From: Candidatus Levyibacteriota bacterium
GTDB taxonomy: Bacteria > Patescibacteriota > Microgenomatia > Levybacterales > UBA12049
NCBI GenBank assembly: GCA_016182185.1
Contig: JACOXU010000001.1
Span: forward strand, 466,915-530,914
DNA length: 64,000 bases
Direction: 5' to 3'
Shown: positions 5,479 to 9,124 of the stretch, in pieces
Position numbering within the stretch: position 1 is the first letter of the stretch
Layout of the letters: every line of letters starts with the position of its first letter
Made by a program: the position numbers and the translations under genes
The notes under the pieces: generated by a model
What the model was told of the DNA's origin: nothing
Database searches by the model: none
The model's input: only the letters and a program-made list of their open reading frames with translations

Positions 5479-6561
5479 TCAAGCTGTTAAAAATTGTTTG
5501 ACATTATCCAAAGTAACATGCACTGAACTCCCATGTGGAACTTTACCCTCTACGATAAATCTTGCAGTTTTCCTGCAGATGCTGTCGATTGTTCGCTCAA
5601 GACTCCTTATTCCTGAATCAAAACCTAAGGGTCTTATAACAGAAGGCCAGACCGATTCGTCAACCAATAATTGATTCTCCGAGAGTCCTGTTTGTTTTCT
5701 AATTTTAGGAAAAAGATAATTTTTGGCAATTGCAATTTTTTCTTCATCTGTATAAGAAGGCATCTGTACTATCTCGAGCCTATCCAAAACTGCAGTTGAA
5801 ATATTAGTTGTGTTATTCGCAGTTGAAACAAATAAAATTCGGGAAAGATCAAAAGGATAATCTACGTAATGATCAGTGAACGCTCTATTTTGTTCTGGGT
5901 CCAAAAGCTCAACTAAAACTCCCATAATATCGGCACGCGCCGCCTCGGTGACCCTATCTAGCTCATCCAAAAGAATAACAGAGTTCTTACTTTGAGCATG
6001 AATTATTTTTTTTATGACTGCTCCCGGTTCTGCATCGGCCATTGCACGTGATTGACCACGAAGCGCTCGAGCATCGCCCATTCCACCGAACGGAATTCTT
6101 TCAAATTTACGGCCCAGAGCCTCTGCTATAGAATAAGCAAGAGTAGTCTTACCTGTTCCTACTAAACCTATCAGACAAAGTATCGGAGCATGGAGGACTC
6201 CCGAAGGATTCTGCGAAAGGCTAAGAATGATTGAAGCAAGATATTCAAGGATTCTATTTTTTACACTATCAAGACCAAAGTGGTTTTTGTCCAAAATTTG
6301 CCGGGCAAGATTTAGATCGAGTGCGTCTTTTGTTTCCTTATGAAATGGTAAGGAGATAACCCAGTTAATATAATTTGAGACACTTTCAAAATTTATAAAT
6401 GTTCCGCTTCCTGACTTAAGACTTGCGCGCAGAAGCGTTATCATTCCTTCAATTTTTTCAAAAAGATACTGAGGAAGTTGAGAGGATTTTGCTTTTTCCT
6501 CAAGTTTCTGTATCTGGCTCTCAAGGTTCGGGTTCTGATCCATATATTTATAATACAACAA
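5479..6561 (-). CDS. Lon-like AAA+ ATPase module, lacking both the Lon N-terminal substrate domain and the C-terminal S16 protease domain.
   Basis: Co-linear with the Lon ATPase core: GLDSVKNRILEYLA, Walker A GLVGTGKTTLAYSIAEALGRKF (Lon has GPPGVGKTSLGKSIA), Walker B VILLDELDR, LDPEQNRAFTDHYVDYPFDLSRILFVSTAN and MPSYTDEEKIAIAKNYL. The protein ends at the position where the Lon protease domain would begin. Confidence 0.6.
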   Translation of the reverse strand: MLYYKYMDQNPNLESQIQKLEEKAKSSQLPQYLFEKIEGMITLLRASLKSGSGTFINFESVSNYINWVISLPFHKETKDALDLNLARQILDKNHFGLDSVKNRILEYLASIILSLSQNPSGVLHAPILCLIGLVGTGKTTLAYSIAEALGRKFERIPFGGMGDARALRGQSRAMADAEPGAVIKKIIHAQSKNSVILLDELDRVTEAARADIMGVLVELLDPEQNRAFTDHYVDYPFDLSRILFVSTANNTTNISTAVLDRLEIVQMPSYTDEEKIAIAKNYLFPKIRKQTGLSENQLLVDESVWPSVIRPLGFDSGIRSLERTIDSICRKTARFIVEGKVPHGSSVHVTLDNVKQFLTA

Positions 6562-6578
6562 TATATATTTTAAGTCAT

Positions 6579-7580
6579 CTATAGCAAATCTTTTAACTTG
6601 ACCAGAATTTTATAACTATTAGCATGTTTTAATACACCAAGGTAAGATTGCACTGTCTGGTTTAAAGAAAAATCTGATATCTTTCCCGATCGATGAACCT
6701 TAATTTTTATTTTGACTTTATTTAAAATTCTTCTTTTAGTCTTTGTCCTCGGCAACAGGTAATACGGCAAAACAATGTATCCTAAAAAATCTATTCCCCA
6801 AGAGAGTTTGCGGAAAATAATCTTTTGTTGATGAAGTTCTAGATTCAAATTATTTAGCAAAAATTCTTTTATTATGTGTAAGTATTGAAATAGACTTTCC
6901 TTTGTATTTGAAATGATAATAAAATCATCGGCATAACGAATATAATATTTAACTCTTAATTTGTGTTTTACAAACTGATCCAGTTCATTTAAGTAAATAT
7001 TGGCAAAAATCTGGCTTGTTAAATTTCCTAAAGGTATTCCTCTTCCCTCCTCTTTGTTAAAGCTTGTTATAACATGTTCTAACAACTTAAGCACATTTCT
7101 ATCTTTTATTTTTTCTTTTAATAATCTTAAAAGTATCTTATGGTCTACGCTTGCGAAGAACTTTCTAATATCGAGTTTTAAAGCCCAGCATTCTCCGGTG
7201 TAATTTTTAGAAACCTCCCCTGCAAAGTTCTCAAGTCTCTTTACTCCTCTATGTGTTCCTTTACTCAATCTGCAGGAATATGAATCATAAATAAACGTTT
7301 TATCAAAAACACTATACAGGTATTTATATAAAAGGTGATGAACTATCCGATCTGTAACTTTTGCTTTGTGAATATGTCTTCTTTTAGGATCATTTATATA
7401 GAAATCTTCATAATCTCCGTGTTTATATGTTTTGCTTTTTAACTTTCGGTGAAGTTCAAACAGATTGTCTTCTAGATTTAAATGAAATTCTTGGACATCT
7501 TTTTTCTTTCTTTTTCCTTTGACAAACTCATTCCATGCTTGAAAAAGATTTTCTATTGAAATAAGATTATCGTATGTCAT
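6579..7580 (-). CDS. Diversity-generating retroelement (DGR) reverse transcriptase.
   Basis: 333 aa with RT motifs including YADDFII (motif 5) and IPLGNLTSQIFANIYLNELD. The [I/L]GxxxSQ motif 4 is diagnostic of DGR RTs, where group II intron and retron RTs have QG. A template repeat/variable repeat pair with an adenine-only mismatch pattern lies adjacent. Confidence 0.8.
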   Translation of the reverse strand: MTYDNLISIENLFQAWNEFVKGKRKKKDVQEFHLNLEDNLFELHRKLKSKTYKHGDYEDFYINDPKRRHIHKAKVTDRIVHHLLYKYLYSVFDKTFIYDSYSCRLSKGTHRGVKRLENFAGEVSKNYTGECWALKLDIRKFFASVDHKILLRLLKEKIKDRNVLKLLEHVITSFNKEEGRGIPLGNLTSQIFANIYLNELDQFVKHKLRVKYYIRYADDFIIISNTKESLFQYLHIIKEFLLNNLNLELHQQKIIFRKLSWGIDFLGYIVLPYYLLPRTKTKRRILNKVKIKIKVHRSGKISDFSLNQTVQSYLGVLKHANSYKILVKLKDLL

Positions 7581-7598
7581 TTAAGAAAGCAGGTAGTT

Positions 7599-8012
7599 CT
7601 GTTCACACACACACACACACACACCGATAGTATTTTTGACATACCGATATTCTCAAAACTATATGAGTTTTATAAAACTTTAACATCCGCAATTACTTCC
7701 TTTCCAAAAACAAAACGCTATACATTAGGACAGAAATTAGACAATATAACTTTAGAAATTTTGGAACTTTTGTTTTCCATTCCTGTCAATGAAAATAAAT
7801 ATCTTATCTTAAAAAAAATCAGCGTCAAATTGGATATTTTAAAAATTCTCGTCCGTCTCTCCAAAGATACTCAGTGTTTAAGAGAAGATAAATATTTAGT
7901 CCTCCAAGCAAGTCTTGCGGAAATTGGAAAAATGCTTGGAGGATGGATACGTTCCCATGAAAATTTATCAAGCAAGAGACTATCAGAGGAACCAACCTCA
8001 AGTTCGGATTGA
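7599..8012 (+). CDS. avd: Accessory variability determinant (Avd)-like four-helix-bundle protein, transcribed divergently from the RT. The start codon is uncertain because no in-frame ATG exists.
   Basis: The frame is open from 7560 to the stop at 8010-8012. Translation ...HTHTHTHTDSIFDIPIFSKLYEFYKTLTSAITSFPKTKRYTLGQKLDNITLEILELLFSIPVNENKYLILKKISVKLDILKILVRLSKDTQCLREDKYLVLQASLAEIGKMLGGWIRSHEN resembles Bordetella phage bAvd (from memory ...QVLIAEVGRILGSWIARVNRK) and the 23S-rRNA-IVS four-helix-bundle family. The ORF track starts it at a TTG at 7761, which would delete the first two helices. The nearest candidate start is CTG at 7599, downstream of the SD-like aagcaggt. Confidence 0.6.
   Translation: MFTHTHTHTDSIFDIPIFSKLYEFYKTLTSAITSFPKTKRYTLGQKLDNITLEILELLFSIPVNENKYLILKKISVKLDILKILVRLSKDTQCLREDKYLVLQASLAEIGKMLGGWIRSHENLSSKRLSEEPTSSSD
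7605..7624. repeat. (CA)10 dinucleotide microsatellite at the 5' end of the avd reading frame.
   Basis: Read directly: cacacacacacacacacacac, giving 10 AC units over 7605-7624 with a flanking c at 7604. Confidence 0.9.
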
Positions 8013-8091
8013 CATTGTCAGGATTCCAGAAATTGCCATTGAAACCATTAGTCTCATTCCAATTGCCTGCGATTGCACGGTTGGCACCTTT
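7984..8091 (-). repeat. DGR template repeat (TR).
   Basis: 108 nt aligning base-for-base with 8393-8500 at a constant offset of 409. There are 20 mismatches, and every one is a T on the + strand of TR, which is an A on the minus (coding) strand. The TR-encoded peptide has Asn AAY codons at most variable positions. Confidence 0.8.
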
Positions 8092-8157
8092 ATTAGCACT
8101 TCTCCGTAATCAATATTCCACCGAAGATTCTTTTCAGTCTCTTCTGAATTTTATCCT

Positions 8158-8174
8158 CCCCGCCAAAGGCGGGG
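8158..8174. other. GC-rich perfect hairpin (ccccgcc aaa ggcgggg) in the TR-VR spacer.
   Basis: Read directly: 7-bp stem with an AAA loop. It has the same core as the hairpin at 8350-8362 in the opposite orientation. Confidence 0.5.
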
Positions 8175-8349
8175 AAAAAGAGAAGCACCGTAGTAATCTT
8201 GCTTTCCCTGGAAGCACTCTTTCTCATCAAAAGATGAAAAACTCAGGCTTGTGGAAAGGTAAAAAGGCGGTCAGGATAAAAATATCGAAACTCACTGCCT
8301 TATCCTAATTTTAAAAAACGGAGAACCAAAATTCAAGAGGAAAACCAAT

Positions 8350-8362
8350 CCGCCTTTGGCGG
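8350..8362. other. GC-rich hairpin (ccgcc ttt ggcgg) about 10 nt downstream of the DGR target stop codon. It is a candidate DGR cruciform/hairpin element and/or terminator.
   Basis: Read directly. On the minus strand it reads gcccgccaaaggcgg followed by attggtttt. It lies about 30 nt 3' of the VR end, where DGR hairpins are typically found. Confidence 0.45.
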
Positions 8363-8371
8363 GCCAAAAAC

Positions 8372-9124
8372 CTATTTCCTAGGAATTTCTACCAGAGGAA
8401 CCAACCTCAAGCGCGGAGAGACATAGTCAGGATTCCAGAAACCGCCATCGAAACCACGAGTCCCAGGCCAACGGCCCGCGATGGCACGGCTGGCACCTGG
8501 TTGATCATTTTCATATGTATCAGTCCATGTATAGTTGTATCCGTAATCTTTTCCGTGAACTCTTACGCCGGTCTTCTTAAAATGTTTTAAGGCAAGTTCA
8601 GGCCATTCCGGAAAATGACCAACTCTTGTAACAAGCCCTGCTCCGGTATAATCCCTTTCGACTTTCATTTTTCTTTCTTCAAGAAGAACCAATTGATCCT
8701 CATATGGAATATCTTGGCTTCCTTTCAGATAAAACTCGGCCGGGTCTTTTGAAAATGCCAGAAGCGCAGGCTCGGCTGTCAAATCTTCAAGAGTAGGATT
8801 TAAATACCAGTATTTCATTCCTTCTCCTCGCAGACTTGCCGGGGTTTTGCCTGAAGTTTCATAGACGGCGAATCCATCTTTCTCCATATGTTCAACCAAC
8901 TTTTGGATCTCAGGGGATAAAGGAGATCTGACAACTTCTACTCTTGTAGCCTGTACCGCCGCATTTTCAGGTCTTACTTGTGATCTGGGAACTGCAATCT
9001 CACCATAAGCCTCTCTCCAAGTTTTTGAAGCGGCTATAAGCGTTCTTGCGAGACCACTTTTCGCCTTATCAGTTTTATCTGATTTAATATTTTTTCTTAA
9101 CTCTCTTTCAAGAAACTGAGACAT
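8372..9124 (-). CDS. DGR variable (target) protein with a C-terminal C-type-lectin/FGE-like variable region.
   Basis: 250-aa ORF whose last ~40 codons (YENDQPGASRAIAGRWPGTRGFDGGFWNPDYVSPRLRLV) are encoded by the VR. YNYTWTDTY resembles the GNVWEW motif of CLec-fold DGR targets. No signal peptide or TM helix was seen. Confidence 0.7.
   Translation of the reverse strand: MSQFLERELRKNIKSDKTDKAKSGLARTLIAASKTWREAYGEIAVPRSQVRPENAAVQATRVEVVRSPLSPEIQKLVEHMEKDGFAVYETSGKTPASLRGEGMKYWYLNPTLEDLTAEPALLAFSKDPAEFYLKGSQDIPYEDQLVLLEERKMKVERDYTGAGLVTRVGHFPEWPELALKHFKKTGVRVHGKDYGYNYTWTDTYENDQPGASRAIAGRWPGTRGFDGGFWNPDYVSPRLRLVPLVEIPRK
8393..8500 (-). repeat. DGR variable repeat (VR) at the 3' end of the target gene.
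   Basis: Homologous to TR 7984-8091, with 20 substitutions confined to template adenines. It ends 18 nt before the target stop codon. Confidence 0.8.

Follow-up and report, generated by a model that had tools for sequence, protein, structure and literature searches.

The model of mutagenic homing established for Bordetella, from which the mechanism proposed below is taken, concerns diversity-generating retroelements (DGRs), which pair a reverse transcriptase (RT) with the Avd accessory protein, a template repeat (TR) as well as a variable repeat (VR) in a target gene. In the DGR of Bordetella phage BPP-1 the parts lie in the order mtd-avd-TR-brt, and the RNA 3′ of TR is the "spacer" that primes cDNA synthesis. 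How DGR activity is controlled is, to our knowledge, still poorly understood, and homing without restraint should carry a cost. In the simple-sequence repeat (SSR) contingency loci of Haemophilus, Neisseria and Campylobacter, a perfect non-triplet repeat in the 5′ coding region sets the reading frame. Most DGRs of the candidate phyla radiation (CPR), 90% of them, have the architecture B3, TR-(avd)-RT (Wu et al. 2018, PMC5758913). Here we analyse a DGR in a 64,000-nucleotide stretch, hereafter the window, of Candidatus Levyibacteriota bacterium (GenBank assembly GCA_016182185.1, contig JACOXU010000001.1, positions 466,915 to 530,914 of the forward strand). That the locus at window positions 6579–9124 is a DGR is virtually certain; the best explanation of it as a whole, and one we consider quite likely, is a chromosomal CPR-type DGR of Candidatus Levybacteria whose avd gene is switched by a simple repeat.

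An earlier reading of this DNA from its letters alone (the original prediction) had called a complete DGR at the locus. The core of that call stands: an RT, an opposite-strand Avd homologue, a TR, a VR at the 3′ end of the target gene and adenine-only differences between the two repeats are all present, as follows.

6579–7580, minus strand: DGR reverse transcriptase, 333 aa, matching Pfam RVT_1 at 1.2e-24; the motif LGNLTSQ is found at aa 184, YADD at aa 216.

7626–8012, plus strand: avd body, encoding the Avd four-helix-bundle accessory protein; open for 128 codons to a TGA at 8010–8012, with no canonical start.

7984–8091, minus strand: TR, with homology to VR reaching 7980; its invariant 3′ segment, 7984–8002, is an IMH*-like end (IMH, initiation of mutagenic homing).

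8393–8500, minus strand: VR, target codons 209–244; its invariant 3′ segment, 8393–8411, is IMH-like.

8372–9124, minus strand: target gene, 250 aa, with N-terminal helices, a disordered linker (aa 45–62) and a C-type-lectin/FGE-like domain (~aa 70–250) that contains VR.

Recomputing the alignment of TR with VR gave the count originally reported: the offset stays at 409 nt throughout, no gap is needed, and the 108-nt core has 20 mismatches. All 20 fall on a T of the plus strand of 7984–8091, that is, on an A of the minus, coding strand; read on that strand, VR has C instead at 9 of them, G at 9 and T at 2. As TR has 30 A in 108 nt, the chance of 20 out of 20 mismatches hitting A is ~1e-14. The true extent of the homology is 7980–8091, or 112 nt, in which 21 of 21 mismatches are at a TR adenine and none at another base; the 5′ edge of TR is set by the first non-A mismatch, at 8092. 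When both strands of the window were scanned with any base allowed at TR adenines, no further VR-like copy was found. The design of TR is consistent with its use as a template for adenine mutagenesis, as had been proposed: read in the target frame it contains 10 AAY codons (8 AAT and 2 AAC), 27 of its 30 adenines occupy codon position 1 or 2, and a stop could arise by adenine mutagenesis only at the edge codon AAA. The TR peptide given originally had dropped a glycine and should read ...AIAGNWNE....

At their 3′ ends, TR and VR share a 19-nt identical segment, followed by a lone difference and then by divergence. This lone difference is the 21st, A-to-G change (A at 7983 in TR, G at 8392 in VR); it lies three nt short of the 3′ end of the homology and 19 nt past the last variable site. 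It may be what discriminates IMH from IMH*. The same GATAG/GGTAG difference is found in the near-identical related loci L166 and L167 and in four other loci. We rejected it as a fixed, clade-wide IMH*/IMH difference because it is present in just 6 of 86 loci; a mismatch 2–4 nt from the 3′ end of the homology is common in relatives, at times on a non-A base.

Could the RT belong to a group II intron, a retron or a defence system that happens to lie beside an ordinary duplication? The best NCBIfam match of the RT is a group II RT/maturase model (146 bits), which would fit such a view, but this score is far under the cut-off of 300, and NCBIfam contains no DGR-RT model. Among solved structures the best relative by a wide margin is 8ub7_A, a 328-aa chain deposited as "Reverse transcriptase" that we take to be the Bordetella phage DGR RT (bRT), matched over residues 4–320 with an E-value of 2.1e-41; group II intron RTs follow at ~1e-18, about 76 bits behind. 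Profile searches thus gave an RVT_1 match and placed a DGR RT structure ahead of group II intron RTs. The replacement of QGxxxSP by [I/L/V]GxxxSQ is diagnostic of DGR-clade RTs. Of the two motifs originally cited, YADD was located at aa 216 and IGNLTSQ was misread, the actual motif being LGNLTSQ. Judged from its motifs and its best PDB relative, the RT is of the DGR clade. A non-DGR origin is further contradicted by the A-only mismatches, by the presence of Avd and of a target with the C-type-lectin fold, and by the same A-specific TR/VR pairs accompanying 98 relatives of the RT, and we regard it as effectively refuted.

The target folds as a C-type-lectin/FGE-like domain with VR at its C-terminus, and its fold matches include the known DGR variable proteins TvpA, Mtd and TaqVP. 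Treponema TvpA (2y3c), Thermus TaqVP (5vf4) and the Legionella Lcl-type domain share this fold and likewise carry their variable residues in a C-terminal segment, whereas the target described here is small (250 aa) and has no detectable sequence similarity to them. Searches of its sequence against Pfam, NCBIfam and the PDB gave no match, and neither a signal peptide nor a lipobox was predicted in it. Among its 52 homologues, one is identical and annotated as a hypothetical protein of a Candidatus Levybacteria metagenome-assembled genome (MAG). Across the 52, column entropy is 2.71 bits at codons with a template A in position 1 or 2, compared with 0.55 bits at the remaining codons of VR and, for the scaffold, 1.03 bits (P 4e-7). 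Because family-wide hypervariability falls exactly on the A-templated codons, these data support the identification of the locus as a DGR.

The arrangement of the element had been described as atypical, since avd runs opposite to RT, TR and target. This proved to be the published norm: the window element has the B3 order TR-(avd)-RT, a reversed avd and an upstream target (Wu et al. 2018, PMC5758913). RT scans of species-representative genomes and metagenomes yielded 160 loci with 45–67% RT identity; those that carry a title are almost all CPR/Patescibacteria MAGs, the closest (60–67%) being Levybacteria and Woesebacteria. With 67% as the best RT identity, no sister strain is available. An opposite-strand avd lies directly upstream of the RT in 143 of the 143 related loci with a detectable Avd homologue, and adenine-specific pairs were recovered from 100 loci with a simple TR/VR detector, 98 of which have the order VR→TR→(avd)→RT. 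The window element resembles CPR B3 DGRs in gene order, orientation, RT clade, reversed avd, housekeeping surroundings, one adjacent target whose VR is C-terminal, and a VR–TR distance of ~400 nt; we found no structural difference. It is thus a canonical CPR-type DGR, one more in a class known to be abundant in CPR bacteria. Compared with BPP-1, avd lies between TR and RT and on the opposite strand, so that the window RNA 3′ of TR would be antisense to avd; avd overlaps TR by its last 29 nt; the element sits in a chromosome rather than in a phage; the N-terminal region of the target differs, with no sequence-level family match; and, as we propose below, avd is gated by a repeat.

The Avd homologue between RT and TR was confirmed as a plus-strand open reading frame (ORF) whose product matches two models, the NCBIfam equivalog NF033474 (DivGenRetAVD, 86.6 bits against a cut-off of 80) and bAvd of Pfam (64.3 bits against 40). 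The homology is clear, yet the frame has no start: there is no ATG, GTG or TTG before 7761, which is well into helix 1, and position 1 of the Avd profile falls at ~7641, an ATA codon. All parts of the "complete" DGR are therefore present, but the lack of an in-frame start for avd had been overlooked. The evident start codon, ATG 7574, lies on the far side of a simple repeat.

7574–7630, plus strand: avd start codon and leader as assembled, from ATG 7574 through MSFKKAGSSV(HT)n to TAG 7628–7630.

7604–7623, no strand assigned: (CA)10 simple-sequence repeat that separates the avd ATG from the Avd body, 24–45 nt upstream of the RT start codon.

7539–7567, plus strand: promoter-like TTGAAA-17-TAAGAT in the 5′ coding region of RT, from a consensus scan only.

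ATG 7574 is one base away from the RT start codon (7580) of the opposite strand. The frame that it opens ends after 18 codons, +2/−1 nt out of frame with the Avd body; since ATG 7574 is out of frame behind (CA)10, full-length Avd could not be made by ordinary translation from the locus as assembled. By frame analysis, (CA)11 or (CA)8 would join the leader to the Avd body. The tract is perfect, its unit is not divisible by 3, and it is the sole dinucleotide repeat of at least 5 units in the window. The out-of-frame leader (MSFKK..SSV) resembles the in-frame leaders of the Avd homologues P0056 (MSYKKIPSVKSVHIHTHTDSIF..), P0055 and P0109. The start predicted from the promoter-like site at 7539–7567 is at ~7574, the avd ATG itself, with the -10-like hexamer 6 nt before it, and a similar hexamer lies 4–6 nt before the ATG in related (CA)n loci. 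With no room for a Shine-Dalgarno sequence, the arrangement suggests that a leaderless avd mRNA would be produced. Gene callers report avd as an 83-aa fragment from TTG 7761 (7761–8012; P0095).

As for the other end of avd, its final 29 nt (7984–8012, ...LSEEPTSSSD*) are the reverse complement of the 3′ end of TR and include four of the variable-templating adenines. The homologues P0053, P0056 and P0071 carry the same PTS(S/N)SD tail; thus, the Avd tail and the TR end are dual-coded in this sub-lineage.

Is the repeat particular to this genome? A non-A/T simple repeat occupies the avd-RT spacer in 88 of the 138 related loci with a scorable spacer. The repeats are C7–13 (71 loci, mode 9–10), (CA)6–20 (13), (ACAGG)n (2), (AG)n and (CAGA)4, and in none of the 88 loci is the unit a triplet or a multiple of three. 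In the first 74 loci, repeat density was 11.7 per kb in the spacer and 0.17 per kb in the rest of the fetched DNA, a difference of about 70-fold, and repeats outside the spacer are nearly all A8/T8 runs. Loci lacking a spacer repeat have a plain ATG 4–5 codons before the conserved DIPIF motif. Of the repeat-bearing loci, 85 of 86 have an upstream ATG that is open into the repeat, and avd is in frame with it in 19; in the rest the two are out of step by 1 or 2 nt. Wu et al. 2018 (PMC5758913) make no mention of a simple repeat between avd and RT, and we found nothing relevant in the literature searched that links DGRs to phase variation, slippage or simple repeats, though an earlier description may exist.

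Avd proteins in databases point to the same gene structure. With the hypothetical in-frame Avd as query, 48 of the 120 listed homologues begin M-x(3-12)-(HT)n-..DIPIF, 10 have a Met-initiated leader read through PPP, mostly MPPP.., and a single one carries an (RE)n leader. In the usual structure of the gene, therefore, translation begins at the upstream ATG and proceeds through the repeat.

The length of the repeat differs between near-identical contigs. L168 and L169, with 1 mismatch in ~540 nt, are three CA units apart. A second pair gave a longer comparison.

L166 and L167: contigs from ENA ERZ27248201 and JGI 3300032173.

These two are 98.8% identical over 3.7 kb and two CA units apart, and use different upstream ATGs. 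The two share one TR sequence, and TR-adenine positions are the only ones at which VR differs between them, with 20 A-site differences between VR and TR in L166 and 11 in L167. Together with the family-wide entropy at A-templated codons, this pattern lends indirect support to ongoing mutagenic homing. The two contigs also differ by a 6-nt indel in a (CT)n tract near a neighbouring gene (L166:2707–2726).

Taken as a functional element, the repeat is likely to be an on/off switch. Three lines of evidence favour this reading: (i) the stretch from the repeat to the N-terminus of Avd contains no canonical start, and ATG 7574 is open into the repeat and 2 nt out of frame; (ii) non-triplet repeats cluster at the spacer, database Avds read through them and their length varies between near-identical contigs; and (iii) relatives show a mix of avd phases. 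As in SSR contingency loci, the related DGR loci vary in repeat number between near-identical contigs and show mixed frame states. They differ from such loci in that the gated gene would encode an accessory subunit of a targeted mutator rather than a surface antigen or restriction enzyme, that RT would be gated too in many relatives and that the host is an uncultivated CPR bacterium, in which we infer switching from the sequences.

Four observations weigh against a switch. In-frame avd is rarer than the third expected at random (19 of 86, P 0.016; 1 of 13 in the (CA)n class). The window strain shows no variation in repeat length or in VR, as four independent Logan contigs from three runs of the Sequence Read Archive, found by exact copies of the RT and target proteins, are 100% identical to the window, (CA)10 and VR included. 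An ON form of this Avd was not found either: apart from its own 83-aa fragment, no protein in the database searched with the hypothetical in-frame query exceeds 72% identity to it. Finally, the promoter calls are bare consensus matches.

The deficit of in-frame alleles could mean that Avd is made otherwise, for instance by ribosomal or transcriptional slippage or by non-AUG initiation, with the tract tuning expression. In such a DGR, Avd would still be produced from the out-of-frame allele and the repeat would set a low constitutive level. The prevalence of out-of-frame states (67 of 86) would be odd if Avd is needed and fits this proposal, and so do the position of ATA 7641 at the start of the Avd profile and the start of repeat-free relatives 4–5 codons before DIPIF. 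Slippage could involve re-pairing of tRNA-His/Thr 2 nt away on CACACA, of tRNA-Pro 1 nt away on C-runs, or slippage of RNA polymerase, and non-AUG initiation could use ATT 7632 or ATA 7641. But the out-of-frame loci are split between the two alternative frames (delta 1 and delta 2), and no single programmed shift would account for all of them; database Avd proteins consistently start at the ATG upstream of the repeat; and ATA and ATT are very poor bacterial start codons. We therefore consider constitutive production of Avd from the out-of-frame allele unlikely, while granting it more weight than any other alternative to a switch.

Uniformity within the strain could also mean that the DGR is inactivated, the frameshift in avd reflecting decay in a hypermutable tract and the element being a fossil in this genome; the (CA)10 state is indeed the same in all four assemblies of the strain, and VR does not vary among them. 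Several features speak against decay: the RT has kept its whole length and its catalytic motifs; 128 uninterrupted codons encode the Avd body, whose score exceeds the curated cut-off; the leader ORF is likewise open, the repeat has no imperfections and TR/VR show no non-A mismatch. Decay would also not keep the same poised arrangement, which is found in dozens of diverged lineages. We judge a fossil element improbable, and return to a switch that happens to be off in this assembly.

What would such a switch control in the relatives with poly-C tracts? In 40 poly-C loci, no ATG belonging to the RT follows the tract; the RT frame crosses the tract to an ATG on the far side, and the 5′ part of the avd ORF crosses it on the other strand. 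These far-side RT ATGs are antisense to a His codon of Avd; each start codon is antisense to a His codon in the partner gene. One change in tract length restores both the avd and the RT frames in 36 of the 40 (9 ON/ON, 27 OFF/OFF). In many relatives, a single poly-C/G tract in the overlapping 5′ ends would gate Avd and RT together. Examples with the tract upstream of RT are L018, L022, L023, L031, L051–L054, L065, L080, L103, L126, L157 and others.

The joint restoration of frames also bears on the possibility that the repeat acts on DNA or transcription, either as the spacer, variable in length, of an avd promoter (TTCACA-18-GATAGT, 7602–7631) or as a non-B-DNA element, in which Z-DNA or H-DNA tracts (CA, GA, G) would couple or insulate the divergent overlapping transcription units. 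In a promoter-like match the spacer is indeed the repeat itself, several (CA)n relatives have a TATAGT-like hexamer after the repeat, and all repeat types found can form non-B DNA. Restoration of both frames by one length change in 36 of 40 loci instead indicates a reading-frame function; a transcript starting after the repeat would lack any Avd start codon; called Avd proteins are translated through the repeat, which led us to rank the promoter-spacer model low; and TATAGT also encodes a conserved Tyr-Ser of the leader. Action at the DNA level thus seems very improbable.

In seven loci without a spacer repeat, a (GA)8–11, (AG)9, (CT)14 or G10 tract lies inside the RT ORF.

L021:5578–5599: intra-RT repeat.

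L033:5550–5565: intra-RT repeat.

L034:4622–4639: intra-RT repeat.

L062:5536–5545: intra-RT repeat.

L133:3146–3161: intra-RT repeat.

L138:1599–1626: intra-RT repeat.

L141:3534–3551: intra-RT repeat.

All seven fall at one loop, corresponding to aa 178–186 of the window RT, just before LGxxxSQ, which may be an alternative position for the switch. Across the clade, we lean slightly towards the broader view that a hypermutable repeat at the avd/RT junction, or inside RT in some loci, governs most CPR DGRs, slippage deciding the capacity of a lineage for hypermutation.

How would the switch act on homing in the window? Three further features of the DNA around TR and VR enter the model.

8308–8336, minus strand: promoter-like TTGAAT-17-TAAAAT in the VR–TR spacer, a candidate promoter of the TR RNA, from a consensus scan only.

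8350–8362, minus strand: GC hairpin CCGCC-AAA-GGCGG, 9 nt after the target stop and 30 nt after VR, followed by a T-rich tail.

8157–8175, no strand assigned: GC-rich hairpin that lies, in minus-strand sense, 66 nt upstream of TR and has an 8-bp stem and an AAA/TTT loop.

By analogy with Bordetella, a minus-strand RNA, possibly starting from the site at 8336–8308, would carry TR followed by antisense-avd sequence; an RT-Avd complex would reverse-transcribe the TR RNA, misincorporating opposite template adenines; and the mutagenised cDNA would replace VR at 8393–8500, guided by the invariant 3′ end and a hairpin. The IMH-like invariant end and the GC hairpin after VR would mark the recipient from the donor. 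Homing would thereby recode up to 16 residues on the ligand-binding face of the C-type-lectin-fold target, allowing ~1e16 peptides. Avd would be translated from ATG 7574 through (CA)n encoding (His-Thr)n; with (CA)10 the frame ends at 18 codons, and Avd and mutagenic homing would be OFF in this assembly. Slipped-strand mispairing that adds 1 or removes 2 CA units would turn Avd ON, making the phase of the tract a heritable, reversible, stochastic switch on the mutator.

The hairpin at 8350–8362 is a GC-rich inverted repeat of the kind found downstream of IMH; it follows VR and not TR, and may also be a terminator. Of 98 related loci, 26 have a comparable hairpin; the figure reported by Wu et al. 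2018 (PMC5758913) is 34%. Only 19 of the 98 have a GC hairpin on the upstream side of TR. In the window, 8159–8172 and 8350–8363 are 100% complementary over 14 nt, forming inverted copies that bracket the VR–TR spacer, and the two hairpins could each fold locally or pair together over 177 nt. Rfam at gathering thresholds and a tRNA scan found no known RNA in the whole window.

The element is chromosomal and lies among housekeeping genes, namely those for RNase J, a Lon-like AAA+ protein, PNPase, S15 and IF-2. The gene beside RT (5479–6561) encodes the 360-aa Lon-like protein, which has AAA+ and Lon-lid domains only; no match to a protease domain was found in it, and the N-terminal part of Lon models was likewise unmatched. 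Four of the five Logan contig stretches fetched for the strain (L001–L004) end exactly at window position 5902, inside this gene.

What does the locus tell us about DGRs? The layout first singled out as odd is of modest interest, being the published norm. The part worth following is the repeat-gated avd: a conserved, non-triplet, length-polymorphic repeat at the start of avd and often of RT. Since the window avd is called as an 83-aa fragment, automated DGR surveys will probably shorten or overlook repeat-gated avd genes; as gene callers do so with avd and sometimes with RT, such surveys may undercount intact CPR DGRs or misjudge their activity. If the proposed gating is true, it would place a stochastic switch on a programmed mutator, a mode of DGR regulation apparently undescribed in the literature searched, and VR micro-diversity in metagenomes should track the phase of the repeat.

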